A stretch of 64,000 bases of DNA from Legionellaceae bacterium (GTDB lineage Bacteria; Pseudomonadota; Gammaproteobacteria; Legionellales; Legionellaceae): contig JAUYQG010000162.1 of assembly GCA_030695645.1 (NCBI GenBank), positions 7,092 through 71,091 of the forward strand, read 5' to 3'. Positions 20,458 through 50,332 of the stretch are shown one piece after another (the first letter of the stretch is position 1; each line of letters starts with the position of its first letter). Below the pieces are notes generated by a model that saw only the letters and a program-made list of their open reading frames with translations, did not search any database and was not told the DNA's origin. The position numbers and the translations under genes were made by a program.

Positions 20458-20614
20458 TCTGGACTTTGGACAAAACTGTATGCAAAAAGCCGCATGCAAT
20501 TCTGTATATATAATAGTGACAGATAGGGTGATTACTGATCCAAATCAAGAGAATACATCTCCAATTTCTTGAACAGAAAGACATGAGGCCATTTTCATAT
20601 CTTTCTGTTCAAAG
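20458..20614. repeat. two-hairpin palindromic element, short-core variant (copy a)
   Basis: TCTGGACTTTGGACA terminus, GCATGC-type hairpin, 65-nt core, then a GACATGA-type hairpin. Inverted copy at 20877..21032. Confidence 0.85.
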
Positions 20615-20876
20615 ACAGAGCATATTCAAAGTCAGTACTATCACCTTACGCCTTTGGTGATGGTTTTTATTGGGACTTCATCATCAATTTTTTGCCTAAA
20701 AAGCTAAAGACTCATTCGAATGATGATTGTTACATAACCCGCATACGATGACAATTGTATTCTTGAGTGAAGCAAACATCGGAAAAGAACGCCTCTGCCG
20801 AGAGCCCCTCATCCGCCATGCGGTCACCTTCCCGTGTTCGGGCAGAAGGGAATAAGGAAGAGGTTGGTTGGTTTTT

Positions 20877-21032
20877 CTTTGAGCAGAAAGTCATGAAAAT
20901 AGCCTAATGTCTTTCTGTTCAAGAAATTGGAGATGTATTCTCTTGATTTGGATCAGTAATCACCCTATCTGTCACTATTATACATACAGAATTGCATGCG
21001 GTTTTTTGCATACAGTTTTGTCCAAAGTCCAA
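20877..21032. repeat. two-hairpin palindromic element, short-core variant (copy b, inverted)
   Basis: Near-identical reverse complement of 20458..20614, ending TGTCCAAAGTCCAA. Confidence 0.85.
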
Positions 21033-21059
21033 TCTTTGGAGTTCTCAATTAAAACCTCC

Positions 21060-21089
21060 TTGACAAAAAAAACAAATAGCGTGTAGTAT
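21060..21089 (+). promoter_or_regulatory. candidate sigma-70 promoter for wza-wzc
   Basis: TTGACA (21060-21065), an 18-nt spacer, then TAGTAT (21084-21089), about 67 nt upstream of the wza ATG. Confidence 0.4.
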
Positions 21090-21155
21090 TCGTAGATTAA
21101 AATGGCCATCCAAACATAGAATGGCGCATAGTACAGGACGTTGTGGAAATCATAA

Positions 21156-21986
21156 ATGCTGAAAAAAATTAGTTTACTTAGTTTACTTAGTACAGCCATA
21201 ATGCTAACCAGTTGTGGGTTGCTTCCAGGCATGCAAAATCTAGAAACGGGTCAAATGAGAAAATCGATTGTCCCAGAAAAAATCCACGTTCAACCCACAC
21301 TGATTCCAATAACACCTTCTTTAATTGCTGACCAACGAGTAAGCCGATACTACTATCACGTGGCACCTCCTGATGTACTTTCAATCAATGTCTGGGAGCA
21401 TCCTGAATTTGATTTTTTAGTGAGCCCTATATCAACTATTACCACAACAAATGGTGCCTCCGGAACCACGGGCCAGCAATCGGGTTATTTGGTGAATCCG
21501 AACGGGCAGATTTATTTCCCACTTGTGGGTTATATTACCGTTGGCGGAAAAACAACGGATAAAATACGGGAAGAACTAACAAGTAAACTGCAAAAATATG
21601 TTCCCAATCCCCAAATTTATGTCCGAGTATCTCAATATCGAGGGCAAAAAGTGTATGTTCTTGGCGAAGTAACAAGACCTGGTTTATTGCCCATTAATGA
21701 TGAGCAACTTACGATTGCAGATGCGCTGGCGATATCGGGCGGCATTAATTTAGAAACGGCTAATCCTACTTATATTTATGTGATCCGCGGTGATTATACG
21801 AAACCACTTATTTTCTGGTTGAACGCAAAAACTCCCGACAAAATGCTCATCGCGGAACGGTTTAGCTTAAAACCCAAGGATATTCTATATGTATCTTCGG
21901 CTCCTCTCACTCGTTGGAACCGCTTCTTGAGTCTATTGATACCGTCATTACAACCCGTTTTGATTACTCAAGCAATCGTGGCTTGA
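21156..21986 (+). CDS. wza: polysaccharide export outer-membrane lipoprotein (Wza/OPX family, short form)
   Basis: Lipobox LTSC in the signal peptide. Poly_export-like YHVAPPDVLSINVWEHPEF. SLBB-like VYVLGEVTRPG. Followed by wzc. Confidence 0.85.
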   Translation: MLKKISLLSLLSTAIMLTSCGLLPGMQNLETGQMRKSIVPEKIHVQPTLIPITPSLIADQRVSRYYYHVAPPDVLSINVWEHPEFDFLVSPISTITTTNGASGTTGQQSGYLVNPNGQIYFPLVGYITVGGKTTDKIREELTSKLQKYVPNPQIYVRVSQYRGQKVYVLGEVTRPGLLPINDEQLTIADALAISGGINLETANPTYIYVIRGDYTKPLIFWLNAKTPDKMLIAERFSLKPKDILYVSSAPLTRWNRFLSLLIPSLQPVLITQAIVA

Positions 21987-22057
21987 TTGGTTGAGTAATC
22001 AGCTATGCCGACTTGGCTACAAAACCGAGTCATTACAAACACAGGTGAAGGATAAAT

Positions 22058-24274
22058 ATGAGTATCATTGAGTCGATGCATAATCACACCCATAATGAAG
22101 AAGCGACTGATATTTCAGAGATTATTGATAAATTACTAGAGAACAAATTATTAATTGCTATTATTACAAGTATTAGCCTTGCTTGTGGTGTATTCTACGC
22201 TTCAAGGCAAATACCACAATTTCAAGCTAGCATCCTGATTCAGTTTGAGGACAGTGGCCGCGGGATGGTCTTGGGAGCAGGCCTTCTAAATCAAGGTTTT
22301 TCGGGATTCAATCATGGAAATGAGGCCGCTATACAGTCTGCGCTGATCAAATCACGAGTTGTTCTTAACCCAGTATGCCAGAGCTTAGGTCTCGATGTCT
22401 CTGCAACGCCTACACAAGGTTTCTTTAAGCACTTGATTTCGCCAAGCCGAGCAACGATTGAAATTAACAAACTGGAGTTATCTGAACCCTATGTGAATAA
22501 AACATTGGATTTATTCTATGATAAAAGCAATCACGTTGTCCTTTCTGATGATCAGCAGAACATTTTAGTCGAAGGCAACACGTCTTCCCTTCTTCAGAGC
22601 AAGGATAAATCGATAAAATTAAAAGTTTCTAAAATACACGCGGCAATAGGAAATCATTTTTCTGTGATGAAAAGCTCCACTGAACATATCGTTCAAGGTC
22701 TTGCCAGTCGAATCAACATCGTAGATTTGGGTGGGAGACAGCCGATTGGGATCGTCGATGTGACATTACAAGATGCAAACCCACAGCGCGCGGTTGATGT
22801 TTTGAATCAGATTGCCAAAACAATTCTCGAAAGAGACGCAGAGAAAAAATCGCTGGAAGCATCGAAAACATTAGCATTTTTATATCAGCAATTACCCATC
22901 ACAAAAGAATCTCTTGAGAAAGCAGAACTGAAACTCAATCAATATCGCGCGAACAGTGGGAAAATAGATTTTAAGTTCCAATCTAGAGCACTATTAGGAC
23001 AATTCCTTGAAATCGATACAAAATTAGCCGAGTTAAAGCTTACAAAAGAGGATATGAAGCAACGCTATACCATGCACCATCCTTCATTGAATGCATTAAT
23101 GCAAAAAATTTCCTCCATTGAACAACAGCGTGCTGAAATGGAAAAAGATCTAAAGAATTTACCATCATCTGATCAAATAGCATTGAATCTATCCAGAGAT
23201 GTTAGTGTTAAAACAGCGCTTTATACGACATTACTACGAAAAATTCAGGAATTAAAAGTCATAAAGGCTGGCACTATCAGCGACTTAAATATACTCTCGC
23301 TTGCCAAATTACCGGAATCTCCGCTACCAACCCGAAAAAAGGTAACTTATCTAGGAAGCGTCCTATTTGGTCTTATTTTAAGTGTCATGATTATTTATAC
23401 TAGAAAACTGATTTCACCCAAAATTGAAGATCCGCGTTGGACGGAACAACATTTTAATATAGCAAATTTGGCTATTATTCCTTATTCAAAAGAACAAAAA
23501 GATTATTCAGATACTCTAGGATCTCTCAAACAAATTCCTTTACTTGCACATACGAATCCACGGAATTTATCGATTGAGGCGTTAAGGAGTTTACGTACCA
23601 GCTTACAAATTAATTTAAGTTGCGCAAATAATAACATTGTCTCCATTCTTGGGATATCTCCGGGTGTAGGTAAAACCTTCATATCCACAAATCTTGCTTA
23701 TCTTTTAGCAACTGCTGAAAAACGTGTTCTATTAATCGATGCCGATCTACGTCGAGGTACTGCGCATCATTATTTCAATGTATCGGCAGCACCTGGTTTA
23801 ACTGAATTAATTAATGGCACAACAACAGTAGAAAGCGTTTTATTGCCGACGACTCATAAAAATTTAACGTTATTACCAAGAGGAGACTATCCAGCTGATC
23901 CATCAGAGATACTCTCCAGTGCCCGCTTCAAAGGATTAATTCATGAATTATCGCTACAATACGATATTGTAATTATAGATACCGCCCCTGTGTTATTAGT
24001 AACGGACTCGATACTTATTGGATCGATTTCAACGACAAATTATCTAGTCCTGGGTTCAAATGCACACACAACTGGCGAGGTAGAAATTGCCATTAAACGA
24101 CTACAAGGCGCAGGTATTACGGTAAATGGCTCCATTTTCAACTTCCATAATGTGCGAAGTCAGCGAAATCCGTATTATTATCGCTATTATAGCTATAATT
24201 ACTATGCTGACGATAATGCCACCACTAAGGACAAAAAATCACGCAAAAGGAAGAAAGGTGAAGTTGCGTACTAA
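22058..24274 (+). CDS. wzc: polysaccharide co-polymerase / BY-kinase (Wzc type)
   Basis: N-terminal Wzz-like domain with two TM segments and a coiled-coil region. Walker A GISPGVGKTF, A' VLLIDADLRRG, B IVIIDTAPV. C-terminal tyrosine cluster NPYYYRYYSYNYYADD. Confidence 0.9.
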   Translation: MSIIESMHNHTHNEEATDISEIIDKLLENKLLIAIITSISLACGVFYASRQIPQFQASILIQFEDSGRGMVLGAGLLNQGFSGFNHGNEAAIQSALIKSRVVLNPVCQSLGLDVSATPTQGFFKHLISPSRATIEINKLELSEPYVNKTLDLFYDKSNHVVLSDDQQNILVEGNTSSLLQSKDKSIKLKVSKIHAAIGNHFSVMKSSTEHIVQGLASRINIVDLGGRQPIGIVDVTLQDANPQRAVDVLNQIAKTILERDAEKKSLEASKTLAFLYQQLPITKESLEKAELKLNQYRANSGKIDFKFQSRALLGQFLEIDTKLAELKLTKEDMKQRYTMHHPSLNALMQKISSIEQQRAEMEKDLKNLPSSDQIALNLSRDVSVKTALYTTLLRKIQELKVIKAGTISDLNILSLAKLPESPLPTRKKVTYLGSVLFGLILSVMIIYTRKLISPKIEDPRWTEQHFNIANLAIIPYSKEQKDYSDTLGSLKQIPLLAHTNPRNLSIEALRSLRTSLQINLSCANNNIVSILGISPGVGKTFISTNLAYLLATAEKRVLLIDADLRRGTAHHYFNVSAAPGLTELINGTTTVESVLLPTTHKNLTLLPRGDYPADPSEILSSARFKGLIHELSLQYDIVIIDTAPVLLVTDSILIGSISTTNYLVLGSNAHTTGEVEIAIKRLQGAGITVNGSIFNFHNVRSQRNPYYYRYYSYNYYADDNATTKDKKSRKRKKGEVAY

Positions 24275-24289
24275 CTTTTTGTGGTTATT

Positions 24290-24345
24290 AGGGTCTGGAC
24301 AAAAAGACATGAGGCTCTTCTCATGTCTTTTTGTCCAAAGTCCAA
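24290..24345. repeat. solo GACATGA-type hairpin with one element terminus
   Basis: GGACAAAAAGACATGAG / CTCATGTCTTTTTGTCC stem, followed by AAAGTCCAA. Lies between convergent wzc and wzb, a plausible bidirectional terminator position. Confidence 0.8.
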
Positions 24346-24354: not shown

Positions 24355-24789
24355 CTACAATTTTTTATACCACTCATCGAGACTTTGCTCGATCAGGTTC
24401 AATGCTTGTTCAAAGATAACCACCGGACGCTTGAATGGATCGACAATATCAACACCTAGCCATTGACCTAATCTAAAAACACGTCCCCGCGAAAAAGGAA
24501 AATCAGAATGTACTTGTTCTTGTTGTTCTGTTGTCATTGTCCATATAATATCTGAAGCATAGATCATATCTGCTGTAACTTGCTTAGCTCGATGCGAGGA
24601 AATGTCTAGACCTCTCTCCAACATTAACGAGCAGCTGGTCGGGTCAGCTTGTCCTCCAACCACTGCTGCCAAACCAGCAGAATCAACAGCTACTGAATGA
24701 TTTGTCTCAAATTTTTGCTTACATAGCGCCCAAGCCATTGGGCTTCGACAAATATTACCGATACAAAGGATAAGAATTTTTTGAATCAT
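24355..24789 (-). CDS. wzb: low-molecular-weight protein-tyrosine phosphatase
   Basis: CIGNICRSPMA (CX5R(S/T) P-loop). About 145 aa. Start set at the first ATG (MIQKILILC); the track starts at an upstream GTG. Confidence 0.85.
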   Translation of the reverse strand: MIQKILILCIGNICRSPMAWALCKQKFETNHSVAVDSAGLAAVVGGQADPTSCSLMLERGLDISSHRAKQVTADMIYASDIIWTMTTEQQEQVHSDFPFSRGRVFRLGQWLGVDIVDPFKRPVVIFEQALNLIEQSLDEWYKKL

Positions 24790-24809
24790 TTTCGGAATAC
24801 ACACATTAA

Positions 24810-26091: not shown

Positions 26092-26104
26092 GATATCTCC
26101 TTAA

Positions 26105-26162
26105 CTGGACTTTTGACAGAAAGACATGAGGCCTTTTTCATGTCTTTCTGTCAAAAGTCCAA
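26105..26162. repeat. solo GACATGA-type hairpin (24-nt perfect arms)
   Basis: TGGACTTTTGACAGAAAGACATGA ... TCATGTCTTTCTGTCAAAAGTCCA. It overlaps the last codons and the stop of the 26138..27847 gene. Confidence 0.85.
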
Positions 26163-27847
26163 TCCTTAATGGCTTCACAATGTGCTACGCCTTTTTTTGA
26201 ATTTGGGGGATCTTGTATTACGGAATGGTTTAGATAACCCGCATCGCATAAAAAATGCATCACGTTAGCCACGGACTCATCCACAGAACTATTTGATGTA
26301 TCAAGAGTAATGTCAGGATGTTTTGGAGCCTCATAAATATCATCAATACCTGTAAAATGCTTTAATTTGCCGGCTCGCGCTTTCGCGTACAATCCCTTTG
26401 TGTCTCGTTTTTCACATGTCTCAAGTGGCGTTGCGTTATAAATTTCAATGAAACCGCCCTGCTGCGCGATGAGTTGCCGACTTTGTTGTCGCGCATTTTG
26501 ATAGGGTGCGATGGCTGCGCAAATGGCAATACCGCCTGCTTTGGTAATTTCAGATGCTATGTAGCTGATAATACGAATATTTAAATCTCGGTCTGCTTGT
26601 GAAAAACCTAATTTATCTGCTAAAAGATGGCGGACAATATCACCATCTAGAATGGATACGCTTCGTTTATCATGACTCATTATTTTAGCCATCAGCGCTT
26701 GGGCTAGGGTGGATTTTCCTGAGCCAGATAGGCCTGTGAAAAATAATGTAAACCCCTGTTTATTTCGCGAGGGGTAGGCTTCTCTTAATAGTTGAATGAT
26801 ATCTGGAAAGGAAAACCAATCGGGGATAGGCTGATCCAATAGAAGGTTAGTTCGCAATTGAGTACCTGATATGGTAAGCGGTGTTTCATCCGATTTTAAT
26901 TCATGGATAGGTGAATAAGATCGCCGTTCTTTAACATAAACCATTTCTTGAAATGGTAGTATTTTAATCCCTATCTCATGTGCATAATGACTTACAAATT
27001 CTTGTGCCGCATAAGGTTCATAAAAAGGCTGATTACGAGTATTATTTCCAGGGCCTGCGTGATCGCGCCCAACAATGAAATGTGTACAACCGTAATTTTT
27101 ACGAATTAAAGCATGCCATAATGCTTCTCGTGGCCCTGCCATGCGCATAGCCAGAGGTAGAAGGCTTAACACAGCACTTTGCACGGGATAATGTCGCAAC
27201 ACGGTTTGATAACAACGAACGCGTGTAAAATAATCAATATCACCCGGCTTCGTTAAGCCGACAACGGGATGGATGAGAATGTTACCATCGACTTGTACCG
27301 CAGCTTTCAGCATGAGCTCCATGTGAGCTCGATGAATGGGGTTGCGTGTTTGAAAGCCAATGACTGTCGTCCATCCGAGTTGTGAAAACAACTGTTTCAG
27401 TGAATTGGGGGTATGACGAAGTTCTGTAAAATCGTGATACTTGGGTGAGTTTACTGGCTCAAGTGGTCCACCTAGATACCAAGCGCCGGCTGTATTGAAA
27501 AGATAATCCACTCCAGGATGCTTTTTATCGTCTGTCCCAAATATTTTTTCTGCTTCGATGCCTTTATCAGGACGCCATTTATCCGTTATGTTCATGCGCG
27601 CAAGCAAGGTATTGTCTACGTCATAGAGGTTAATGGTTTCCCCTACGATAACTTTATTAGCAATGTCCTCTGACACATCGAGTGTGATGGGTATTGGCCA
27701 GATGTGGTTATTGGCCAGACGGGAATGTGTCAAGACGCTTTCATAATCGGCTTGCGAGAGAAATCCTGTTAATGGAGAAAATGCATTGTTTAGAAGCATT
27801 TCAATGTCGTAACGTTGTCGATTGGTAACAATCCATTGTGAATTCAT
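26138..27847 (-). CDS. bifunctional sulfate adenylyltransferase (Sat type) / adenylylsulfate kinase (PAPS synthase)
   Basis: N-terminal ATP sulfurylase motifs QTRNPIHRAH and VGRDHAG. C-terminal APS kinase P-loop GLSGSGKST. Confidence 0.9.
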   Translation of the reverse strand: MNSQWIVTNRQRYDIEMLLNNAFSPLTGFLSQADYESVLTHSRLANNHIWPIPITLDVSEDIANKVIVGETINLYDVDNTLLARMNITDKWRPDKGIEAEKIFGTDDKKHPGVDYLFNTAGAWYLGGPLEPVNSPKYHDFTELRHTPNSLKQLFSQLGWTTVIGFQTRNPIHRAHMELMLKAAVQVDGNILIHPVVGLTKPGDIDYFTRVRCYQTVLRHYPVQSAVLSLLPLAMRMAGPREALWHALIRKNYGCTHFIVGRDHAGPGNNTRNQPFYEPYAAQEFVSHYAHEIGIKILPFQEMVYVKERRSYSPIHELKSDETPLTISGTQLRTNLLLDQPIPDWFSFPDIIQLLREAYPSRNKQGFTLFFTGLSGSGKSTLAQALMAKIMSHDKRSVSILDGDIVRHLLADKLGFSQADRDLNIRIISYIASEITKAGGIAICAAIAPYQNARQQSRQLIAQQGGFIEIYNATPLETCEKRDTKGLYAKARAGKLKHFTGIDDIYEAPKHPDITLDTSNSSVDESVANVMHFLCDAGYLNHSVIQDPPNSKKGVAHCEAIKDWTFDRKT

Positions 27848-27865: not shown

Positions 27866-28050
27866 CTAGTACCATTTCCATTTAGTTTTGACAGGTAGCA
27901 TCTGACCTTAAATTCATTTTTTGTCGATCGGGAACCTCAAAAATGCTCGAATTAGCGCAACTAGTCCTGCGCTTTTTGAGGTTCCCGATCGACAAAATCT
28001 AAACACAATGATCAGCGCTACCTGTCAAAACTAAATGGAAATGGTACTAG
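27866..28050. repeat. 185-bp triple-nested palindromic element
   Basis: 34-nt outer arms CTAGTACCATTTCCATTTAGTTTTGACAGGTAGC (27866-27899) and their reverse complement (28017-28050). Inner arms TTTGTCGATCGGGAACCTCAAAAA and reverse complement. Central GCGCA...TGCGC hairpin. Confidence 0.9.
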
Positions 28051-28117
28051 GGTCTGTTGACAACAAACCCTAGATGAAAGCTGTTATTGATTTGGACTTT
28101 GGACCAAACTAATCCCA

Positions 28118-38280: not shown

Positions 38281-39420
38281 TCATCTCCTGTCCAAAACGT
38301 CACACATTAATCTAAACTCACCGAATATAACATCAAAATCATCATCATCCCACACCCACTTCTGAAATGCGTTAGCAAATTTGGGATTTTCTCCTCGAAC
38401 GAATCCTCTATCAACCATTACTTCAAGTGAGGCGGAGGGCACATTTTCTACCGTTGTTTTAAAAGTAATATAAGCACAACGAGAATTAAACCAACATAAT
38501 GACATGGGACCCGTATTAACCCCTAAATTCAGATAAGCCAATTCATACAAGGCACTTCGCAAAGACAAATTCCAACAAGCAGGCTGAAAAAAATGGAAAT
38601 TCTTCAGTTGCTCAGGCACATCCTGTAATGCTTGCTCTGTATCAGGAACAAAAATTACACTAAAGTCCTCGTCTTTAATTTTTTGTGCAAACTTAGACCA
38701 GGAAGCAATGTTGCTGTTTCGTTCAGGTAAATAAGCATATTGACGCAAGGTAATCACAACCAGTTTTTTATTTCCAGCATATCGTTGCTTCCACTCCGAA
38801 ATGTACTGCAACGATTGAATATCAGCTTTTAATGATAACATGCTTTTTTGATACCACATTGCCTGTCCGGGCGAATAAGGTATCGGAAATAAAACACTAT
38901 ACTTATCTGGATAAACAAATCGAGCCTCTTTTTCTCTGATTAACAGCGCCTCATACCGTGTTGCACAAAAAACAACACCGTAATCACATATTAATTGCCG
39001 AGTAATAGGAATCAGTATGGAATAAATGCGGAGATTTCGAGCATCTTGACCAACTGCTTGTTCATAATCCACAGCCTCTTTTCTTAAACCACCAGTCATC
39101 CCGGGAACCAAAATAACTCGCAAATACTTCAACCCGAGCTCTTCTCTTTTTGCATTAGCAATACACAAAGCCCACGCAAAGTCATATGTAATGGGCTCCA
39201 CTTCAAAATCATAAAAAAAATATAAACTTTCTTTACTGTTAATAGTACTCTTTTTAAGAGAACTAAAAAAATTAACTGGTCTAATAAACAAGTGATGAAT
39301 AACCAACGCGAAAGGTTTAATAACGTTTCGTGGAATTATCGTGGGCGTTATAAATTCGCGAACTATTCGTCGCATAAACCACCTCAAACCCTGCTCTTTA
39401 AATTTTCTTAACAAATACAT
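38281..39420 (-). CDS. hypothetical protein, possible GT-B-fold glycosyltransferase
   Basis: The C-terminal half (KKLVVITLRQ...SWSKFAQKI...FVPD...LNLGVNTGPMSL) loosely resembles the GT9-type nucleotide-sugar-binding half. Weak call. Confidence 0.35.
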   Translation of the reverse strand: MYLLRKFKEQGLRWFMRRIVREFITPTIIPRNVIKPFALVIHHLFIRPVNFFSSLKKSTINSKESLYFFYDFEVEPITYDFAWALCIANAKREELGLKYLRVILVPGMTGGLRKEAVDYEQAVGQDARNLRIYSILIPITRQLICDYGVVFCATRYEALLIREKEARFVYPDKYSVLFPIPYSPGQAMWYQKSMLSLKADIQSLQYISEWKQRYAGNKKLVVITLRQYAYLPERNSNIASWSKFAQKIKDEDFSVIFVPDTEQALQDVPEQLKNFHFFQPACWNLSLRSALYELAYLNLGVNTGPMSLCWFNSRCAYITFKTTVENVPSASLEVMVDRGFVRGENPKFANAFQKWVWDDDDFDVIFGEFRLMCDVLDRR

Positions 39421-39432
39421 TACTTAATCCTA

Positions 39433-39655
39433 CTGGACTTTGGACAAAAAGACATGAAAATGGCCTCATGTCTTTCTGTCCAAGAAATTTGAGATCTGTC
39501 ATTCTAAATTAGATTACTAATCATCCTGAATGTATGTTTTTTTACAAGGAAAGCCGGTTGTGTCAAGTATTGTAAGCTTATAAATATCACCGATCTAAAA
39601 TTATTTGGACAGAACTGCATGCGTCTTTTTGCATGCAGTTCTGTCCAAAGTCCAA
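39433..39655. repeat. full-length two-hairpin palindromic (MITE-like) element, core type I
   Basis: Fills the whole gap between two co-directional genes. Both hairpins and both termini (CTGGACTTTGGACA ... TGTCCAAAGTCCAA) are intact. Confidence 0.9.
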
Positions 39656-39656
39656 T

Positions 39657-40538
39657 TTACAAATAATCACCATATAAATCCTCTACAATGGATTCAAGTG
39701 ACATATCTGGCAACTGAAACAGCTTGCTTGACTCACTCATATCAAGACTTGAATAAGAACATAATGGAGAAGCAACACCTGCTTGTAATGCGGACTTAGG
39801 ATGAACCAACGATTCACTCACTCCTAACAGGCGCACTAAACACAAAGCCATCGTATGATAAGTAATATCATGTTCTCCGGAGAGATGAATGGTTTGTTTT
39901 ATATTTCTTGCCACAATTTCCTTTAGACACGAAGTGACTGTTTTGATAGAAATTGGACTGAAACGAAGATCATAAAAAGGTTCAATACGGCTATTGTTTT
40001 TTAATGCCTGTATCCATTGTAAAATGAGCGGGTAATCCGGTGTTAATACCTTTGTTAATCGCACTATTGCAACATTATTAGACATGCTAAGAAGCTTACT
40101 CTCTGTGGCTGCCTTGTGTTCGCCATGAGCGGTTGTTGGGCAAACATTGTCTTCTACTCGATAAGCCGGCTTATTTCCATCAAAAACAGTTTGACTGGAT
40201 AAAAAAATAATAAATGCATTTTGCCTGAAAAAAAAGTTCGCCAAATTAATTTGTGCTTCATAATTCACTATTCGTGAATATTCAAGAGAGTTTTTACAGT
40301 CAGAAAACTTAGTAATGCTGGCGCATAAAAAAACCGCGTCCATGGGAATATCGCAACAAAACTCCCCAACCAGAGCTAAATCTAAATAAAAAATTCGTTT
40401 ACTTATGTTTTCCTTTTTTCGCGTAGTCCCAAATACAGAGTAACCAAAATGCTCCAGCTCTGCTTTTAAAGCAGAACCTATTTGAGAGTCAATTCCAATA
40501 ATCAATATATTTTGATTTTGTGTCAAATAAAAAGTCAT
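39657..40538 (-). CDS. SDR-family sugar nucleotide reductase/epimerase (RmlD-like)
   Basis: ILIIGIDSQIGSAL glycine-rich loop. About 290 aa, in a sugar-locus context. Confidence 0.6.
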   Translation of the reverse strand: MTFYLTQNQNILIIGIDSQIGSALKAELEHFGYSVFGTTRKKENISKRIFYLDLALVGEFCCDIPMDAVFLCASITKFSDCKNSLEYSRIVNYEAQINLANFFFRQNAFIIFLSSQTVFDGNKPAYRVEDNVCPTTAHGEHKAATESKLLSMSNNVAIVRLTKVLTPDYPLILQWIQALKNNSRIEPFYDLRFSPISIKTVTSCLKEIVARNIKQTIHLSGEHDITYHTMALCLVRLLGVSESLVHPKSALQAGVASPLCSYSSLDMSESSKLFQLPDMSLESIVEDLYGDYL

Positions 40539-40570: not shown

Positions 40571-40765
40571 TTGGAGTTTGGACAAAGCAACATGCAAAAA
40601 CACGCATGTTGCTTGTTCAAATAATTGAGATCCCGATTTAATAGGCGGTTTGAGTATAACCATGCATCATCGCAAACCCCCTATTAAATACATTAATCTT
40701 TCTCAGTGCCCATCATGGACAGAAGGACATGAGTCTTTTTTCATGTTCTTTTGTCCAATGTCCAA
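40571..40765. repeat. degenerate two-hairpin element with a different core
   Basis: TTGGAGTTTGGACAAAGCAACATGCAAAAACACGCATGTTGCTTGTTCAAATAATTGAGATC ... GGACAGAAGGACATGAGTCTTTTTTCATGTTCTTTTGTCCAATGTCCAA. Confidence 0.75.
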
Positions 40766-40932
40766 TTAGTTAAGATACGAAAAAATATCACAAAATAAAT
40801 TTATAAACAAATTATGAAAAACAGGTTGCAACCAAGCTTTACATTGCATTACTATCACTGGAATCATAACACTAGTTTTTCATGAAATGATTCCGGGTGC
40901 GTTCGAAATAACCTCCTATTTCCGTACGAAAC

Positions 40933-40980
40933 TATACTGCGCGCGGTCACAAACTTAAGTTTGTGACCGCGCGCAGTATA
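40933..40980. repeat. 48-bp perfect palindrome
   Basis: TATACTGCGCGCGGTCACAAACTT immediately followed by its exact reverse complement. Confidence 0.9.
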
Positions 40981-41050
40981 ATTACGTTTTACATATTCAT
41001 AAGCAGACATATATGTTTCTTGAGCTACCACCAGAGCAGGAATTGACTTA

Positions 41051-42406
41051 ATGAATCCAATTTATTTCGGTGTTTGCGTCTGGAGTCGCGCTTATTGTGA
41101 GTTGTTTGTCAATTACGCTCTAGCTTCATTACTAGCAGATGAAAACATTCCGGCACTTGATAATTCATCAAAAAAGAATTGTTTTTTATTATCAACTACA
41201 AAAGAAGATTGGCAATGGTTCCAATCTCAGCCTCTGTTCAAACTATTACAGTGCCATATGGATGTTGAGCTCCTAGAAATTACTCTCATCTCAGAAGAAG
41301 AATATCAAAAATTAAACAACCGACTCGGGCTGAGCAAACTATACACAATGACATTGGGGCATCGCCAAATTCTTAATAAAATGCATGCTGATAAAGCTGT
41401 AGGAAGCATTGTTTTCCCTGATTCAATTTATTCAAAAAATGCCATTTCTTCCGCTTATAAACATATTGCGAATGGGAAAACGTCCGTTTTAGTACATTGC
41501 CCCCGATTTTCAACAACATCTATCGTTGATGAATTACGAGATATGCAATACGTTAAGCCAGGAGTCCCTCTAACAATAGAGCCCCGCACGCTAGTACAAG
41601 TTGCTATACAGCATCTTCATATCGATATGCGAATGCAACAATGGGAGGCGCCTTATGCACCTGAATTTTTCATGGACCCATCATGGGTTTTACCGAATAA
41701 CTCCGGTATGTTGTTTTATACATGGAGTTGCTGGTACGCATTTATTGATTACGCCAAAATGCCATCACATAATATCAATTCCTTACAGGATAATACGATA
41801 GATGGTGCATATTTCGATAATAATCTTAAGAAAAATGAAGCGCATTTTATTACGGATTCCGATGAATTTACTTTAATTACATTTAGTCCTCATATGTATC
41901 GAACGATCCGTCAGCACTCCATCAGCAATCACTTCGATCAAAAAGCAATTAATTTAACCAAAATTGACTTTGCAAGAAGGAAAATAAAAGAAACTATGGG
42001 TGCCAATCTTAGTGTTTTTAAGTCGCAGTTTGCAAACAAACCCGTCTATTGGCACACTAAAGATTTAACACCTAGCTGCTTTAAACTACAAGAATGTACA
42101 ATGAACCTTATCAAAAAAATAATGAGCAGTAAGTTATCACTTGTTGACAAAATCACACTGAAAATGAACCGAACTTATCACTCTATTCAAACAGAAGAAA
42201 TAAAAATCAATACGTTTCAGCCTTCTTTTCCAAAACCGGCAATGACATTCAAACCCTTTTCTCATTATGCATACAGCATTTTTAATGGCCTGAAAAAGCT
42301 TATGCGTCGTCTGTTTGTTTGGGGAAAGATACTTCTAATCGGCTTTTTTTTTGGTGCAACTTTGACCCTCTTCATTGTATTGTTACGAGTATGGGGATTC
42401 TATTGA
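41051..42406 (+). CDS. uncharacterised tail-anchored protein, paralog 1 of tandem family (candidate glycosyltransferase)
   Basis: Conserved N-terminus NPIYFGVCVWSRAYCELFVNYALASLLADENIPALDNS. DKAVGSIVFPDSIY. C-terminal TM helix LLIGFFFGATLTLFIVLL. Confidence 0.8.
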   Translation: MNPIYFGVCVWSRAYCELFVNYALASLLADENIPALDNSSKKNCFLLSTTKEDWQWFQSQPLFKLLQCHMDVELLEITLISEEEYQKLNNRLGLSKLYTMTLGHRQILNKMHADKAVGSIVFPDSIYSKNAISSAYKHIANGKTSVLVHCPRFSTTSIVDELRDMQYVKPGVPLTIEPRTLVQVAIQHLHIDMRMQQWEAPYAPEFFMDPSWVLPNNSGMLFYTWSCWYAFIDYAKMPSHNINSLQDNTIDGAYFDNNLKKNEAHFITDSDEFTLITFSPHMYRTIRQHSISNHFDQKAINLTKIDFARRKIKETMGANLSVFKSQFANKPVYWHTKDLTPSCFKLQECTMNLIKKIMSSKLSLVDKITLKMNRTYHSIQTEEIKINTFQPSFPKPAMTFKPFSHYAYSIFNGLKKLMRRLFVWGKILLIGFFFGATLTLFIVLLRVWGFY

Positions 42407-42422
42407 AACAAGGAGTAAAGGA

Positions 42423-43835
42423 ATGAGTAAACCGATTTATTTGGGAATTACGGTATGGGGAAGAGAGTATTGCGAAACCTTCGCCGATTATTGTTTAGGA
42501 TCACTTTTAGCCAAAGGAAATATTCCTGCGCTTGATAATTCAACGGGCAACAATACATTTTTAATTGCCACAACAAAAGCCGATTGGCAGTGGTTTCAAA
42601 CCCATCCTAATTTTAAATTGTTAAAGCAATATATGAAAGCTGAGTTTATAGAGCTCTACATTGTTTCTGAAGAAACATACCAGCAAATGAATCATAACTT
42701 GAACTCTTGCAAGCTATATAATGTTTCGTTAGGCCAAACAAAAATTGTATCTAGAATGTACCGAGATAAGGCAGTTGGTGGCGTTATATATGGCGATACT
42801 ATTTATGCTCAAAACGCTTTAACCTCTGCTTATCGCTTTATTTTAACAGGCAAAAAAATTGTTATGTTTCATTTTTGTCGTTTTGCGAGAACGCAGCAGT
42901 TATTGTCTGGTTTAATGGAACTAGGATATATAAAACCTGGGAAACCCATTGAAATTTCTAACCGAGACTTAGTGCGAGTTGCTTTGCAGTGTTTACACAT
43001 TGATATTGCTATGCAGAACTGGAATGCCCCTGTTTTACCTGAGTTTGCGATAGAGATGGCATGGTCTCTGCCAAATCAAAAAGGTATACTTTTTCACCCA
43101 TTAAGTTTTTGGTATGTTTTCATCGACTACTCTAGGCTAGTTAATCACAATATAGAATGCTTGCAGAATGATACGATCGATTCAACTTATCTCCGTGATA
43201 ATTTCACAAAGGACGATGCTCATTTAATCACTGATTCAGACATATTTACCGCAATCAGTTTTAGCCCTGATCTTCCTCGAAAACCTGTGCTAATTACCGA
43301 TATACATACAACACCAATTAATTACGCAACTATTGGTCCATACTCTATGGTAGGTCGATTTACTAACTGCTCAGGAGTTAATCCAGACTTTTTATTAAAC
43401 TCTGCAGCTTCTTTTGAGGGAAAATTGTCGGATAAAGATGTGGCAATCAAATTGGCTTATTTAAAAGAAAGAATTTATTTGCAGTTGAATACTACTGGAC
43501 AAATTGATTTATTCAAAATTGGATTCACGCAATACCCTATTTATATGCATTCCGAAGATTTGGATGAAGAATGCTTTACCATAGAACAAAACGCGCAACA
43601 TGTTATTGGGGAAATCATATCCTTTCTTGAGCAAAAACCGACGGAATCATATGAGTATTTATTTAAAAAAGTATCTTTCCTAAGGCGATTATTAGGTTTT
43701 TCAATTGAAGTATATCTTATTTTAAGAAAAAAGCTTTTAAGAGGCTCTGAAGAAAAACGTAAATTTTATCCTGTATTTTGCCACAACATTGAAAATGAGA
43801 CCGAGAGCGACTCTGATAAGGACTATCCAGTATGA
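42423..43835 (+). CDS. uncharacterised protein, paralog 2 of tandem family
   Basis: MSKPIYLGITVWGREYCETFADYCLGSLLAKGNIPALDNS. Start at the ATG preceded by AAGGAG; the track starts at 42375. More divergent, and I saw no clear terminal TM helix. Confidence 0.8.
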   Translation: MSKPIYLGITVWGREYCETFADYCLGSLLAKGNIPALDNSTGNNTFLIATTKADWQWFQTHPNFKLLKQYMKAEFIELYIVSEETYQQMNHNLNSCKLYNVSLGQTKIVSRMYRDKAVGGVIYGDTIYAQNALTSAYRFILTGKKIVMFHFCRFARTQQLLSGLMELGYIKPGKPIEISNRDLVRVALQCLHIDIAMQNWNAPVLPEFAIEMAWSLPNQKGILFHPLSFWYVFIDYSRLVNHNIECLQNDTIDSTYLRDNFTKDDAHLITDSDIFTAISFSPDLPRKPVLITDIHTTPINYATIGPYSMVGRFTNCSGVNPDFLLNSAASFEGKLSDKDVAIKLAYLKERIYLQLNTTGQIDLFKIGFTQYPIYMHSEDLDEECFTIEQNAQHVIGEIISFLEQKPTESYEYLFKKVSFLRRLLGFSIEVYLILRKKLLRGSEEKRKFYPVFCHNIENETESDSDKDYPV

Positions 43836-45343
43836 AAACTTTAGCGGAAAAAGTAAATCCAATTTATTTTGGCGTTTGCATGTGGGGGCGTTCTTTCTGC
43901 GAGCTATTTGTGAATTATGCCTTAGCGTCTATGCTTGCAGAAAAAAACATTCCAGCACTTGATAACTCAGCAAGGAAAAATTGTTTTTTAATTTGTACAA
44001 CAAAAAACGACTGGGAATGGCTACAACGTCAAGCGACTATTAAGTTATTAGAACGTTATATCGATATTGACTTCATTGAGATCACCCCCATATCAGAAGA
44101 GGCGTATAAAAAATTAAACAATCGCTTAAACTCGCATAAACTTTATATAATGACGATGGGGCATCGTTTAATTCTAAATCGTATGTACAAAGATAAGGCT
44201 GTAGGCAGTATCGTCTTTCCTGACTCAATTTATGCAAATAATGCCATTTCCTCAGCCTACAAACATATCGCTGATGGGAAAACGTCTGTTTTGGTTCATT
44301 GTCCTCGATTTTCTACAACATCGATTATTGAAGAGTTATGCGACTTAAAATTTGTGACTCAAGGCGATCCATTATCTATTGAACCTCGGGCATTAGTACA
44401 GGTGGCCATGCGCCATCTCCATATTGATATACGAATGCAACAATGGGATGCGCCTTATTTCCCCGAGTTTCTATTGGAGCCATCATGGATTTTACCTGAT
44501 AATGCTGGTATGTTATTTTACACATGGAATTGTTGGTACGCATTCATCAATTATGCAAACCTTGCATCACACAATATAAGCACATTAGGTGACAACTCCA
44601 TAGATGGTGTGTATTTTGATGCCAATCTTAAGCCAAATGAAGCACATTTTATTGAGGATTCCGATGAGTATGCATTGATTACCTTCAGTCCTCATATTCA
44701 TCGCACAATCAAACCTATACATCGTATTAGTTATTCTGTGTCAAGTAAAAATATGATGGATTTAATCAAGATTAATTTTACAAAACAAAAAATAAATGGC
44801 TCTATGGGTATGCATATGGGGCAATTTAAAATGGAATTTGCTTCAAAACCAATTTATTGGCATTCAAAGGAATTAACCCCTGCTTGTTATCAATTGCAAG
44901 CTCAGTCACAGATGCTAATTCAAAAATCACTATATGGTAAATTGACGTTTATTGACAAAATAAAAATAGATATTAGCAATACTCATAATACGGGTCTAAT
45001 AAAGAGAAAAATAATTAATAACATACATCTACTTTTTAGCAAATTATTGAGTTTATCTTATCGTGTGTTGAGGCGACTAAAACGCAGTATTGTTGGTATT
45101 CGAAATATTGGAATTCGAAGGGTTGTAGATTTTGGGATTCGAAGGACTCGAAACATCCTAAAGATACTATTTATGGGGCCTAAATACATATTTAAAGGAG
45201 CGAAACACGCCGTCCATAGTACTTATCAGATTGTATCTAATAATAGACACTTATTCATAGGCATGACTCTATTTGCAACTGGAGCGGTGCTCGGCGTGAC
45301 GTTAACTCTACTGGTTTTATTGCTGCGAATCTTGAAGGTCTAA
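43832..45343 (+). CDS. uncharacterised tail-anchored protein, paralog 3 of tandem family
   Basis: NPIYFGVCMWGRSFCELFVNYALASMLAEKNIPALDNS. Highly similar to paralog 1 across about 330 aa. ATGA overlap with the preceding gene. C-terminal TM LFATGAVLGVTLTLLVLLL. Confidence 0.8.
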   Translation: MKTLAEKVNPIYFGVCMWGRSFCELFVNYALASMLAEKNIPALDNSARKNCFLICTTKNDWEWLQRQATIKLLERYIDIDFIEITPISEEAYKKLNNRLNSHKLYIMTMGHRLILNRMYKDKAVGSIVFPDSIYANNAISSAYKHIADGKTSVLVHCPRFSTTSIIEELCDLKFVTQGDPLSIEPRALVQVAMRHLHIDIRMQQWDAPYFPEFLLEPSWILPDNAGMLFYTWNCWYAFINYANLASHNISTLGDNSIDGVYFDANLKPNEAHFIEDSDEYALITFSPHIHRTIKPIHRISYSVSSKNMMDLIKINFTKQKINGSMGMHMGQFKMEFASKPIYWHSKELTPACYQLQAQSQMLIQKSLYGKLTFIDKIKIDISNTHNTGLIKRKIINNIHLLFSKLLSLSYRVLRRLKRSIVGIRNIGIRRVVDFGIRRTRNILKILFMGPKYIFKGAKHAVHSTYQIVSNNRHLFIGMTLFATGAVLGVTLTLLVLLLRILKV

Positions 45344-45357: not shown

Positions 45358-45412
45358 TTTGGAGTCTGGACAAAACCGCATGAAAAAAGACTCATGCGGT
45401 TTTATCCAAATA
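45358..45412. repeat. solo hairpin of the element family between convergent genes
   Basis: TTTGGAGTCTGGACAAAACCGCATGA AAAAAGA CTCATGCGGTTTTATCCAAATAA. The position fits a bidirectional terminator. Confidence 0.75.
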
Positions 45413-45440
45413 ACGGGCAATTAATGAACGGTATAAAAAA

Positions 45441-46298: not shown

Positions 46299-46337
46299 AT
46301 GCACTCATCTACTAGAATTGTCAACAGACCCTAATTA

Positions 46338-46559
46338 TTGGACTTTGGACAAAAAGACATGAAAAGAGGCTCTTGTCTTTTTGTCCAAGAAATTTCAGAT
46401 CTATCCTTCATAATTAGATCGTTAATTATCCTGATTGTAAATGTTTTTACAAAGCAAGCCGATTGTCGTTGATATTTTGGCCTATAAATAAGTCAGATCT
46501 AAACTTATTTGGACAGAATTGCATGCGTCTTTTTGCATGCAGTTTTGTCCAAACTCCAA
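46338..46559. repeat. full-length two-hairpin palindromic (MITE-like) element, core type I (diverged)
   Basis: Collinear with 39433..39655. Termini TTGGACTTTGGACA ... TGTCCAAACTCCAA. Confidence 0.9.
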
Positions 46560-46598
46560 TAATTAGTAACTACTCATTTCGTATCAAGGAAATTAATA

Positions 46599-46618
46599 TA
46601 TACTGCGCGCGCAGTATA
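46599..46618. repeat. 20-bp palindrome, a collapsed version of the 40933 palindrome
   Basis: TATACTGCGCGCGCAGTATA shares the outer arms of 40933..40980 but lacks the GGTCACAAACTT/AAGTTTGTGACC centre. Confidence 0.8.
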
Positions 46619-46622
46619 GCCA

Positions 46623-47774: not shown

Positions 47775-47787
47775 TGAAAACACTCCT

Positions 47788-48897
47788 TTAATAATAAAAC
47801 TTCTTAACATGTTCAACTATATATTCTTTCTCATCATCTCCCAACTCTGGGTAAATGGGCAAAGAAAGAACCTGACTCGAAATTCGTTCAACATTCGGCA
47901 AGCTACCTGGTACATATTTTAAGTGAGTTCTTGCTATAGGTTGTTGATGAATAGGCACTTTATAATGAATTTTTGTTTCAATTCCTTGTGAAGACAAATA
48001 GTTTTGCAATTCATCTCTATTTTGAGCTTTAATAATATAAGTATGATACACAGAGTGATAATCATCACACAGCGATTTTGGCAAAACAATTTGATCTAGA
48101 TCACGCAAGTGTTCATCGTAATAAGCAGCAATCTGAATACGACTCCTCGTCCAATCTTCAAAATACTTAAACTTAACATTTAATATAGAGGCTTGCATTG
48201 AGTCCAACCGCGAGTTATTACTCCAAACATGGCAGACTCCATCCATGGTCAAACCATTGTGGCGAAGAATTCGTAGCTTTTCAGCTAAGTTAGCATCATC
48301 AGTAACCACCACTCCGGCATCACCGCAAGCATTGAGAGTTTTAAACGGATGGAGGCTAAAACATCCGGCATCACCAAATGTGCCTACTAGTTGATTTTTG
48401 TACTTAGCGGATATTGCTTGAGCACAATCCTCTACAATTTTGAGTCCATGCTTCTCTGCAATGTCACATATACGTTCCATATTACATGGGCGTCCGGTCC
48501 AGTGAACGGGAAGAATCGCCTTGGTTTTGGCTGTGATATGTCGCTCTATTTGCTCGACATCCAAATTATCATCATCACCAATATCAATTAGAATCGGCTT
48601 GGCACCAACCAAAGCAATACTGCTTACTGATGTAACAAAGGAATTAGCTGTCGTAATAACCTCATCACCCTCACCTATGTCCAATGCTTTTAAAGAAAGC
48701 ATCAAGGCATCTGTACCCGAATTTAATCCAATAGCATATTTTTTTCTATGAAATGCAGCAAATGTATTTTCAAATTCTCGTAAATGATCACCAAGAGTAA
48801 AAACACCAGTTTTTAATACATCTTCTAAGGCAATTAATATTTCAGGTATGATATCGGTATACTGCTTGTTTAGTGGCAAATAAGGTATTTTATTCAT
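47788..48897 (-). CDS. DegT/DnrJ/EryC1/StrS-family sugar aminotransferase
   Basis: [19 protein letters not shown] and [12 protein letters not shown] (Lys retained). Paralog of the downstream gene. Confidence 0.85.
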
Positions 48898-49087
48898 TAA
48901 GACTCCGCAACAGATAAACTGAACGTATAGATTTCATATGATCGTAATTTATAATTTTTGATTCGGTTCCTGCATCTAATCTGTTGACTAACTCTTACTA
49001 TAATTGCTCAATTAAACTATGAGTTAATCAACAGATCAAACGAAACACATCGGCAAAAGCTAGAAATCATGTCCAAGAAACACATAG

Positions 49088-50074
49088 CTAGGCATGCAAT
49101 ACAAATTCCTGTGATTCTTTATGCAAGTGGTCCAAATACCGTTTTCCCCAATTTGCCATATCACGAACACCCTCTTCCAAAGAAATATCTTGCCTCCAAC
49201 CTAATTTCTTAATTTTGCTACTATCTAGCCAGTATTGTGCATCCTCACCAACTCGACCAGGCGCCAATTTACACACGGAATCAAAATCTACATTCAATTC
49301 TTGTGTAATCATAAACACCAGATCTCTAATAGAAATGGGCACTTCCGGGCCTACATTATAAGTTTCCCCCGTTGGTGCATTCTTGGCAACGATATAAATT
49401 GCTTGAGCCAAGTCTCTAGCATGAAAATACGATTTCTTTACTTTCCCACCGCCTTCTAGAGGGAATGTTTGGCCTGTCAATATATTATAGATTAACCGAG
49501 GGATTACCCTCCAAATTTGCTGTCCTGGTCCGTACGCATTAGACGGTCGAATAATATTCATCGGTAATTTATTGACAAGGTGCAGAGTCTCCAAATGCAT
49601 ATCCGCCGCCAATTTTGAAACAGCATAAGGACTCGTTGGATATACTGGGAATTTTTCATCGGCAGGTCGATCAACAGAACCATATAACTCCGACGTGCCA
49701 ATTTGTATAAATTTCTTTAAAAAAGATCGTGTGCTTAACGCTTCACATAAACGAACAACTGCTAGCAAGTTGGTTTCATAGTATCGATACGATTTATCCC
49801 AGGATGTTGCATAAGCAAGTGCCGCAAAATTGATAATATAATCTGGCTTTTCTTTGTCAATCAGTTCCAACAGTCGATCGAGTTCAAACGTCATGTGAAT
49901 TTGACGATATATGTATCTTGGATCTGCCACACCAATATTGAGTGTATAGGCGGGGCTTCTTTCTAAATTACGACCGACACTAATTACTTTTTTTGTATCG
50001 GGCTGTTCCAGCAAATAAGATGCAGTATGAACTCCGAACACTCCTGCTCCACCGATTAACAAATAACTTGACAT
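49088..50074 (-). CDS. NDP-sugar 4,6-dehydratase/epimerase (extended SDR)
   Basis: MSSYLLIGGAGVFG start preceded by AAGGAG. YAVSK catalytic motif. The track N-terminal extension (to 50203) is repeat sequence. Paralog of 52600..53592. Confidence 0.85.
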   Translation of the reverse strand: MSSYLLIGGAGVFGVHTASYLLEQPDTKKVISVGRNLERSPAYTLNIGVADPRYIYRQIHMTFELDRLLELIDKEKPDYIINFAALAYATSWDKSYRYYETNLLAVVRLCEALSTRSFLKKFIQIGTSELYGSVDRPADEKFPVYPTSPYAVSKLAADMHLETLHLVNKLPMNIIRPSNAYGPGQQIWRVIPRLIYNILTGQTFPLEGGGKVKKSYFHARDLAQAIYIVAKNAPTGETYNVGPEVPISIRDLVFMITQELNVDFDSVCKLAPGRVGEDAQYWLDSSKIKKLGWRQDISLEEGVRDMANWGKRYLDHLHKESQEFVLHA

Positions 50075-50109
50075 AATTTTCAACTCCTTTTTATTGAGAT
50101 TTAATACAA

Positions 50110-50332
50110 TTGGACTTTGGACAGAAAGACATGAAAAAGGCCTCATGTCTTTCTGTCCAAGAAACTTGAGATCTATTACCCTCAAACAGTTCATTAATTG
50201 CACTATATGAAACTATTTTCATAAAATAGATCGATTCCACCCAATAATAGATGTCTGTAAATTTCACAAATCTGAAATTATTTGGACGGAATTGCATGCG
50301 TTTTTTTGCATGCGGTTTTGTCCAAAGTCCAA
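50110..50332. repeat. full-length two-hairpin palindromic (MITE-like) element, core type II
   Basis: Reverse complement of 33930..34150, with only scattered mismatches by eye. Both termini are intact. Confidence 0.9.

Follow-up and report, generated by a model that had tools for sequence, protein, structure and literature searches.

QMITE2 of Coxiella burnetii is a non-coding miniature inverted-repeat transposable element (MITE) that measures about 150-190 bp and has terminal inverted repeats, a highly stable fold, and unique direct repeats of 7-9 (7-11) bp. It is present in a few full copies and in many small, hairpin-only derivatives similar to repetitive extragenic palindromic (REP) sequences, and its copies extend by a few bases into the 3' ends of genes (PMC5896051, PMC10969869). 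It carries a GTAG-type REP that is targeted by IS1111, and its terminal repeats are 23-29 bp long (PMC5896051). The Correia elements (CREE/NEMIS) of Neisseria are abundant intergenic MITEs of about 100-155 bp with inverted-repeat ends, which often adjoin genes and are co-transcribed with them, which are known to alter the expression of neighbouring genes, and the transposase of which has not been identified (PMC5896051, PMC11602168). Since conserved MITEs were found by a census in 99.6% of Legionella genomes (PMC11602168), MITEs as such are to be expected in the Legionella group. Here, we describe a family of repeated elements of 58-223 bp in a stretch of 64,000 nt (the window; JAUYQG010000162.1, positions 7,092-71,091) of a 71,377-bp contig from the metagenome-assembled genome (MAG) of an uncultured Legionellaceae bacterium. 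Over its entire length, the window is occupied by a very large locus for surface glycans. With a probability of about 85%, the elements represent a previously unnamed and apparently undescribed MITE family of Legionellales, i.e., small, non-coding, non-autonomous transposons.

The terminus of these elements, TTGGACTTTGGACA, occurs with up to two mismatches at 19 sites in the window, all of them within positions 20459-50332, as compared to 0.56 sites expected by shuffling, and none of 100 shuffles reached 19. Four full copies of about 222 bp (33930-34150, 39433-39655, 46338-46559, and 50110-50332) had been listed in an earlier note on this DNA, made from the sequence alone, and their layout and coordinates turned out to be as given there. 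An nhmmer profile that was built from these four copies and run on the window returned four full, five partial, and several hairpin-only copies, including every copy that the note had listed, among them its truncated or degenerate copies and solo hairpins, and it gave no match at 1-20 kb or 50.4-64 kb of the window. In total, 14 pieces of the element family are present in the window; a bare terminus remnant at 28092-28105 had been missed by the note. Open reading frames (ORFs) that overlap the copies run in from the flanks or out to them, and none of at least 100 aa in the ORF map sits inside an element.

Each end of an element is formed by a terminal inverted repeat of 14-16 nt, TTGGACTTTGGACA(AA), which reads TTGGACTTTGGACA at one end and TGTCCAAAGTCCAA at the other and holds a tandem TGGAC motif. 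Just inside each end lies an 18-bp hairpin, the base of which (GGACA/TGTCC) is the TGGAC motif repeated in inverted orientation; the motif is thereby present three times at each end, twice direct and once inverted. An invariant CATG forms the top of the stem. Further inside, a short AGATCT-containing linker is followed by a freely diverging core of about 90 nt. With the copies oriented so that the GACATGA hairpin (hairpin A) comes first, the left part of a full element consists of the outer 8 nt TTGGACTT, hairpin A (TGGACAgaaagaCATGa, loop, tCATGtctttcTGTCCA), and the linker AGAAAnTTGAGATCT, and the right part, beyond the core, of the linker AGATCTaAAATTATT, hairpin B (TGGACAgaactgCATGc, loop, gCATGcagttcTGTCCA), and the outer AAGTCCAA. 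The two arms of about 70 nt are imperfectly inverted relative to each other (about 67-72 nt at 75-76%). The inner AGATCT motif of the layout proposed in the note is present but is not identical in every copy, being replaced by CGATCT at 39592 and by AAATCT at 50267.

Folded as single strands, full copies form a terminal helix of 7 bp and two hairpins of 17-19 bp, with free energies of -82 and -80 kcal/mol and z-scores versus shuffles of -10.4 (copy 50110) and -8.3 (copy 39433). When 28 hairpin units taken from the window and from related loci were aligned, 95.4% of the cells were paired, as compared to 33-44% in controls with slid partners. Nine of the 18 stem pairs change on both sides, and none of 500 shuffles reached the observed values of covariation. 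The base (GGAC/GTCC) and the top (CATG) of the stem are invariant or nearly so, and the six positions between them covary, giving at least seven stem variants (e.g., AGAAAGA, AGAACTG, AAGTCTG, AAAGCAA, AAAACCG, and ATAAAGA). This covariation shows a pressure to keep the palindrome at the DNA or RNA level. The pressure could come from recognition by a transposase, from template-switch correction of a quasipalindrome, or from a structure needed in the transcript; selection for transposase recognition and quasipalindrome template-switch correction are both processes from which covariation in DNA palindromes can stem. A strand-specific pattern of G·T wobble pairs in the hairpins was considered as a sign of selection at the RNA level and was rejected, as the shared ancestry of the arms explains it and the sample is too small.

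The very stable folds and the strong stem covariation also favour another explanation, namely, that the elements are RNA or DNA structure modules selected in the host (bidirectional terminators, mRNA 3'-end stabilisers, or protein-binding sites), which were spread mainly by recombination within glycan loci as boundaries of their cassettes and for which mobility is secondary. However, transposase-recognition selection or template-switch correction could produce the covariation as well, and the sequences that flank the elements point in a different direction.

The bases flush with both termini were compared for 14 two-ended elements of the window and of related loci (the numbers L001-L023 denote related or comparison loci or contigs that were fetched for the analysis). 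Exact direct repeats flush with the termini flank eight of them: they are of 7 bp in the case of elements 26105 (TCCTTAA), 33930 (ATCTCAT), and L004 (TAACATA), and of 6 bp in the case of elements 46338 (TAATTA), 50110 (ATACAA), L009 (TTATAA), L002 (TCCTTT), and L007 (CATTCT). A ninth element, that of L003, has a 7-bp repeat with one mismatch. When the left flank of one element was paired with the right flank of another, 1 of 182 combinations reached 6 bp. The duplicated sites are richer in A+T than the window (79% vs. 61%). Flush duplications of variable sequence are a product of transposition and not of recombination, which argues against a spread of the elements as recombined structure modules.

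Certain observations weigh against the assignment of the elements to a MITE family. Five of the 14 two-ended elements (39433, 40571, the pair 20459-21032, L010, and L017) are without a duplication, and the window contains no flank-exchange partners by which recombination could explain the duplication-less copies; these elements may be old, rearranged, or mis-joined. The length of the duplication is not fixed, being either 6 or 7 bp. As the contig comes from a MAG, joins across the repeats at copies without duplication could be assembly errors. No autonomous partner, which would be a transposase gene lying between two such termini, was found either in the window or among the 23 fetched loci, and for this reason mobilisation in trans is inferred rather than shown.

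Taken to its extreme, the concern about joins leads to the supposition that a repeat collapsed or mis-joined during assembly or binning gives a false picture of many copies in one locus. The origin of the window from a MAG and the copies that lack duplications could be cited in its favour, and so could an independent short-read Logan assembly of the source sample, which breaks at the element copies (contig L001 terminates within them, and the start of L020 falls near 20.2-20.5 kb of the window), although such breaks are the expected effect of multi-copy repeats. Nevertheless, four copies of the window have matching duplications on both flanks, which indicates that the joins at these copies are genuine. 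The copies differ from one another (67-95% identity) and have differing core types, which is not expected of one collapsed repeat, and the family is found again in assemblies made independently in other studies. An artefact of this kind is barely credible.

Two copies are inserted into the ends of genes. Copy 33930 interrupts a gene for a Rieske-domain protein 17 codons ahead of the gene's natural end and supplies its present stop codon; the homology of the Rieske gene in the window stops at the left terminus of the copy. The related Legionellaceae contigs L021 (GCA_030696305.1) and L023 contain the orthologous locus without the element. Removal in silico of positions 33930-34150 together with one ATCTCAT gives ...NNELILSH-ISCASKEAS..., which is colinear with ...NDELILCR-IKQVVTAES... 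of L023 and ...ALVASR-VTHAATLK... of L021. As the excision restores colinearity with the element-free orthologues, copy 33930 is a simple insertion. The solo element 26105 is inserted in the last codons of a gene encoding ATP-sulfurylase/APS-kinase (the product of which is 100% identical to an NCBI protein from a "Legionellaceae bacterium"), directly upstream of the start codon of an epimerase gene. Its excision in silico yields an overlapping stop/start, GTGA, with the epimerase gene (as read from the sequence), and the TCCTTAA duplication preserves the ribosome-binding site of the latter.

A rearrangement is present in the vicinity of copy 33930. The order of genes in L021 and L023 is Rieske, GT2 glycosyltransferase, LPG-synthase-like membrane protein, and a membrane protein of 650-700 aa. 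Comparison of window positions 33024-36402 with L021 6266-11090 and L023 3264-8015 reveals a break of synteny: the GT2 gene is missing, the LPG-synthase-like gene is downstream, and of the large membrane protein the window retains only about 416 aa at the C-terminus, joined in frame with the tail of the Rieske protein. The junction, where the reading frame of the Rieske tail enters the large membrane protein at residue ~283, is separate from the element and lies about 17 codons past the insertion. The rearrangement is therefore near, and not at, copy 33930. The proximity of this copy to a synteny breakpoint relative to L021 and L023 is a point in favour of structure modules acting as cassette boundaries, and so are the near-identical direct copies 36410 and 39433, which bracket a three-gene ABC-transporter cassette. 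The possibility that copy 33930 splits one long gene was ruled out, as the orthologous loci have separate genes for the Rieske protein and for the 650-700-aa membrane protein, and the continuous frame in the window stems from the separate junction, a deletion, beyond the insertion.

The cores of the elements behave differently than their arms of about 65 nt. Between subfamilies, the left arms are 88-100% and the right arms 85-95% identical, while the identity of cores is 48-63%, which is near the noise expected for their composition; within one subfamily, core identity rises to 70-89%. Across genomes, the cores fall into at least four types: type I, type II (to which that of L017 is loosely related), the type of L003 and L004, and the type of L018. 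Internally deleted short forms are represented by 20460, 20869, and L020 17011. The earlier grouping of the window copies into type I (36410, 39433, and 46338), type II (31417, 33930, and 50110), and a short type (20460 and 20869) was correct, and its description of conserved termini with different cores was accurate. Swapping of cores or recombinational shuffling of RNA modules, as proposed there, is not needed: among the copies compared, no chimeric copy, as active core swapping would need, was seen, and selection for transposase recognition yields conserved ends with freely drifting or replaced interiors in subfamilies of MITEs.

By description, QMITE2 is the closest analogue of the new family. 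The two, compared by description only, belong to the same order, Legionellales, and share a similar size and length of direct repeats, a population composed of full and hairpin-only forms, and overlaps with the 3' ends of genes. In contrast to QMITE2, the new family has no GTAG REP (by eye), and it has a TTGGAC-type terminus of 14-16 nt and two separate sub-terminal hairpins. Correia elements have terminal repeats of 26 bp and duplicate the TA dinucleotide; RUP and other MITEs derived from IS630 duplicate TA as well. In the new family, unlike in Correia elements and IS630-type MITEs, the duplications are variable, A+T-rich, and of 6-7 bp, and a covarying hairpin is present at each end. ERIC/IRU, RUP, and Nezha resemble the new family in being non-coding, intergenic, about 100-300 bp long, with inverted ends, a stable fold, and internally deleted subfamilies. 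However, the new family is without Rfam similarity, and its ends combine a tandem TGGAC with an inverted TGGAC within the hairpin.

Likeness to REP sequences and bacterial interspersed mosaic elements (BIMEs) of enterobacteria and pseudomonads concerns the extragenic palindromes with a conserved stem base, which occur single or paired between genes and can affect the stability of mRNA. REPs and BIMEs lack both target-site duplications and terminal inverted repeats that enclose a core, and are associated with RAYT transposases. One could thus consider the elements as palindromes of the REP/BIME type, kept or moved by a RAYT (an IS200/IS605-like Y1 transposase) that acts on single-stranded hairpins. 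The short, covarying, mostly extragenic hairpins with conserved base and top motifs, the existence of solo hairpins, and the description of small Coxiella derivatives of QMITE2 as REP-like (PMC5896051) are consistent with such a view. It is highly improbable, however, as the true terminal inverted repeats around the core and the 6-7 bp duplications are not made by REP/RAYT or IS200/IS605 movement, and scans with Pfam and NCBIfam revealed no Y1/RAYT gene among the ORFs of the window. Given the terminal repeats and the duplications, the label "BIME-like" of the earlier note does not fit, in contrast to its alternative designation of the elements as non-autonomous mobile elements (MITEs), which is supported by the terminal inverted repeats, the flush 6-7 bp duplications, the dispersed copies, and the lack of any coding capacity seen within the elements.

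Dispersed copies are present in other contigs and genomes. In the same strain, two more copies (L020 17011-17157 and 18435-18543) lie just beyond the left edge of the window. A pattern scan of a genome collection matched at least 11 loci, all figures being lower bounds, and indicated the presence of the family in at least four other MAGs of Legionellales. In JAPLRK01, a full copy (L004) follows an lpxA-type acyltransferase gene that adjoins FabZ- and BamA-like genes, a 179-bp copy (L003) separates a D-Ala-D-Ala carboxypeptidase gene from an RlpA-like gene, and a solo element (L009) lies upstream of a gene for NAD-glutamate dehydrogenase. Partial copies are present in three further Legionellales MAGs (L008, L010, and L012), and at least three short metagenome contigs (L016-L018), all from one JGI metagenome, carry the family. 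The related loci L014, L015 (with a 71% identical sulfurylase), and L021-L023 contain no copy, which indicates that the presence of the family varies among relatives. The copies of JAPLRK01 beside housekeeping genes demonstrate that the family is neither restricted to the glycan locus nor glycan-specific, and they are a further argument against cassette-boundary modules of that locus.

BLASTN searches with the full copies and the elements of L002 and L007 against plasmids, and with one full copy against phages, gave nothing or chance matches (E ~1), and a pattern scan of viral contigs gave 0 matches. The whole window has no Rfam match at the gathering score, and for one copy searched at E<=10 only chance matches to microRNA hairpins, far below the threshold, were obtained. 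A literature search with the terminus string returned irrelevant matches only.

The copies of the window include full elements as well as decay products of the family. Two short copies of 163 nt, 20459-20622 (minus strand) and 20869-21032 (plus strand), are 94% complementary and form the arms of a 574-bp inverted pair. In the former, the outer (left) end carries a terminus and a hairpin of the B type, and the inner end a hairpin of the A type, the terminus of which is degenerate; the outer terminus of the latter is TGTCCAAAGTCCAA. The 246 nt between them (20623-20868) are an unrelated sequence, which is more G+C-rich and without an Rfam match. The pair, which sits in the divergent region between a 20-kb minus-strand operon and wza-wzc, is without a target-site duplication as a whole (flank comparison); it could be a composite or foldback element. 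A solo A-type hairpin with the right outer terminus only is present at 24290-24345, between two convergent genes, the Wzc-like 22058-24274 and 24355-24804, which encodes a low-molecular-weight phosphotyrosine phosphatase. The solo element 26105-26162 (58 bp) consists of a terminus, the A hairpin, and a terminus, and is flanked by TCCTTAA at 26098-26104 and 26163-26169. The bare remnant at 28092-28105 (plus strand, TTGGACTTTGGACC) was revealed by the terminus scan. The truncated type II copy 31417-31513 (minus strand, 97 nt), comprising the B-arm terminus, the hairpin, and the start of the core, is 95% complementary to 50236-50332.

The full type II copy 33930-34150 (minus strand, 221 bp) is flanked by ATCTCAT at 33923-33929 and 34151-34157. 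The type I copy 36410-36600 (plus strand, 190 nt), truncated inside the B hairpin, lies between convergent genes and is 94% identical to 39431-39623. The full type I copy 39433-39655 (plus strand, 223 bp; no duplication) fills the gap from the stop codon of ORF 39657-40538 to the ribosome-binding site of ORF 38281-39420, ending 1 nt from the stop codon on one side and 12 nt from the start codon on the other. The divergent copy 40571-40765 (195 bp; no duplication), situated in a divergent intergenic region, has two hairpins with a different stem sequence, and at 45359-45414 (minus strand) only a B-like arm, i.e., a terminus and a hairpin with the stem AAAACCGCATGA, is present between convergent genes. 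The full type I copy 46338-46559 (plus strand, 222 bp) is flanked by TAATTA at 46332-46337 and 46560-46565, and the full type II copy 50110-50332 (plus strand, 223 bp) by ATACAA at 50104-50109 and 50333-50338; the latter sits 34 nt upstream of the likely true start of a dehydratase gene (~50076, as read from the sequence). Solo hairpins could result from deletions between two TGTCCAA repeats, one located after hairpin A and the other after hairpin B.

The ORF map and the sequences bear out the earlier claim that the copies lie between genes, near start or stop codons, and in both orientations. By a hand count on the ORF map, all three convergent junctions in the 20-50 kb region carry a hairpin-only or truncated form (24290, 36410, and 45359), and copies are present at two of the three divergent junctions (20459-21032 and 40571) and in seven co-directional gaps. 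The occupation of all convergent junctions is again compatible with structure modules that serve the host, e.g., as bidirectional terminators. On the other hand, no T-run follows the hairpins, the number of terminator-like sites in the region (18) is not above that in shuffles (14.1 +/- 5.0), with one B hairpin alone being detected by a lax scan, and no Rfam family corresponds to the elements. The role of the hairpins as terminators or stabilisers is thus speculative, and the reading of the elements as host-selected modules is quite unlikely; an effect on the host, such as the provision of hairpins at mRNA 3' ends or polarity, may accompany the insertion of MITEs.

Scans with Pfam and NCBIfam, supplemented at 56-63 kb by precomputed annotation (for ORFs 56445-63311, the domains were taken from that of Logan contig L019), show that the glycan locus contains genes for Wza, Wzc, a low-molecular-weight phosphotyrosine phosphatase, a UDP-GlcNAc 2-epimerase, and a NusG paralogue, two ABC-2 transporter pairs, and many genes for epimerases/dehydratases, aminotransferases, methyltransferases, and glycosyltransferases. 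The G+C content across the window is 35-45%. The tightly packed 20-kb operon at 1-20 kb contains no copy of the element, which fits insertion or retention only where gaps exist. Most likely, the copies piled up in a 30-kb stretch because the many short A+T-rich gaps between its gene cassettes tolerate insertion, and the pile-up does not indicate a glycan-specific function.

The properties of the MITE family allow us to propose a mechanism of its spread. A transposase encoded elsewhere in the genome would bind the TGGAC-containing ends, possibly with the help of the hairpins, and insert the element at A+T-rich sites with a staggered cut of 6-7 bp, giving rise to the flanking duplications. The duplications suggest an enzyme of the DDE type. 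Duplications of 6-7 bp are known for the ISDol1 group (the host of which is a representative of Desulfobacteraceae), some members of IS982, and Tn552-like enzymes, and may provide a lead. In accordance with the earlier note, no transposase was identified by Pfam and NCBIfam among the scanned ORFs of the window, a few of which are without a family assignment.

The same 16-nt terminus is present at both ends of complete small elements with unrelated interiors in L002 (a Desulfobacteraceae MAG; 215-bp element, duplication TCCTTT) and L007 (a high-G+C proteobacterial MAG, CAVPSQ010000001.1; 274-bp element, duplication CATTCT). As the search pattern constrained one end only, the inverted terminus at the opposite end and the duplication provide, in both cases, evidence that does not depend on the search. 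Excision of the L007 element in silico restores the frame of an IstB-like C-terminus, LDRLRHNAYRLILEGQSYRAPKP. The occurrence of one terminus around unrelated cores in L002, L007, and the Legionellales elements implies a transposase family that would recognise TTGGACTTTGGACAAA in several lineages and would be wider than the Legionellales family; the terminus itself is older and more widespread than that family. No candidate transposase with matching ends was found among the ORFs of L002, L007, L008, L010, and L012. Remnants of mobile elements surround the TTGGAC-terminus element at 3700-5400 of L007, namely, an IS3-family transposase frame, an IstB-like C-terminal fragment, and a large serine recombinase, none of them with matching ends. 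Lone termini in L005, L006, and L011 were rejected as candidates: the ORFs that adjoin them are unrelated genes, and the pattern matches are probably due to chance.

Other repeats are also present in the window. A second, unrelated MITE-like element of 185 bp (27866-28050), with perfect terminal inverted repeats of 34 nt (CTAGTACCATTTCCATTTAGTTTTGACAGGTAGC) and an inner perfect inverted repeat of 25 nt, lies between the sulfurylase gene and an OMP/SPOR gene, and one of its arms has a partial match at 61730-61758. G+C-rich palindromes built on TATACTGCGCGCG...CGCGCGCAGTATA, i.e., a perfect-type hairpin with 31-nt arms at 40926-40987 and a 20-nt version at 46599-46618, make up a third type of small repeat in these gaps between genes. 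A duplication of about 500 bp (3791-4280 vs. 17753-18498, 79-86% identical) covers the NusG-paralogue gene (17893-18396) along with the sequence around it; the duplicate at 3791-4280, which is without a long ORF, is probably a pseudogene. An exact ops-like GGCGGTAG is located just downstream of the NusG paralogue, at 17786-17793 of the minus strand. Three tandem paralogous ORFs of 451, 486, and 503 aa at 41051-45343, which share 63-74% DNA identity over stretches, have no Pfam or NCBIfam match. Similarly, no family match was obtained for an ORF of 634 aa (29462-31640), which lies where the G+C content of the window is highest (45%). Within this ORF, a stretch of 41 nt (30442-30482) is repeated at 31542-31582, right after the truncated copy 31417-31513, and a related CGTCATCCCGAG motif occurs at 30323 and 63296.

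The understanding of MITEs is not changed by this family, which represents a well-known kind of element and involves no new mechanism. It is, however, a marker for the annotation and assembly of genomes of uncultured Legionellales, as it breaks short-read assemblies and creates false extensions of ORFs: an annotated protein of 455 aa starts inside copy 33930, and the Rieske gene ends inside the same copy. It provides a second MITE system of a described type for the order that contains Coxiella, and the elements of L002 and L007 hint at a transposase family with a recognisable terminus, common to several phyla. The glycan locus itself is riddled with mobile DNA that alters the ends of genes and lies near at least one rearrangement. 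A bolder proposal, which we consider unlikely, is that TTGGACTTTGGACAAA and a structure-specific sub-terminal hairpin mark an undescribed or poorly characterised transposase family that moves varied cargo across distant lineages, and that, at the same time, the Legionellales MITEs are recombination joints of glycan cassettes. If this were true, MITEs would act as joints for the deletion, swapping, and truncation of glycan cassettes and would thereby contribute to the diversification of surface antigens in this group of amoeba and human pathogens.

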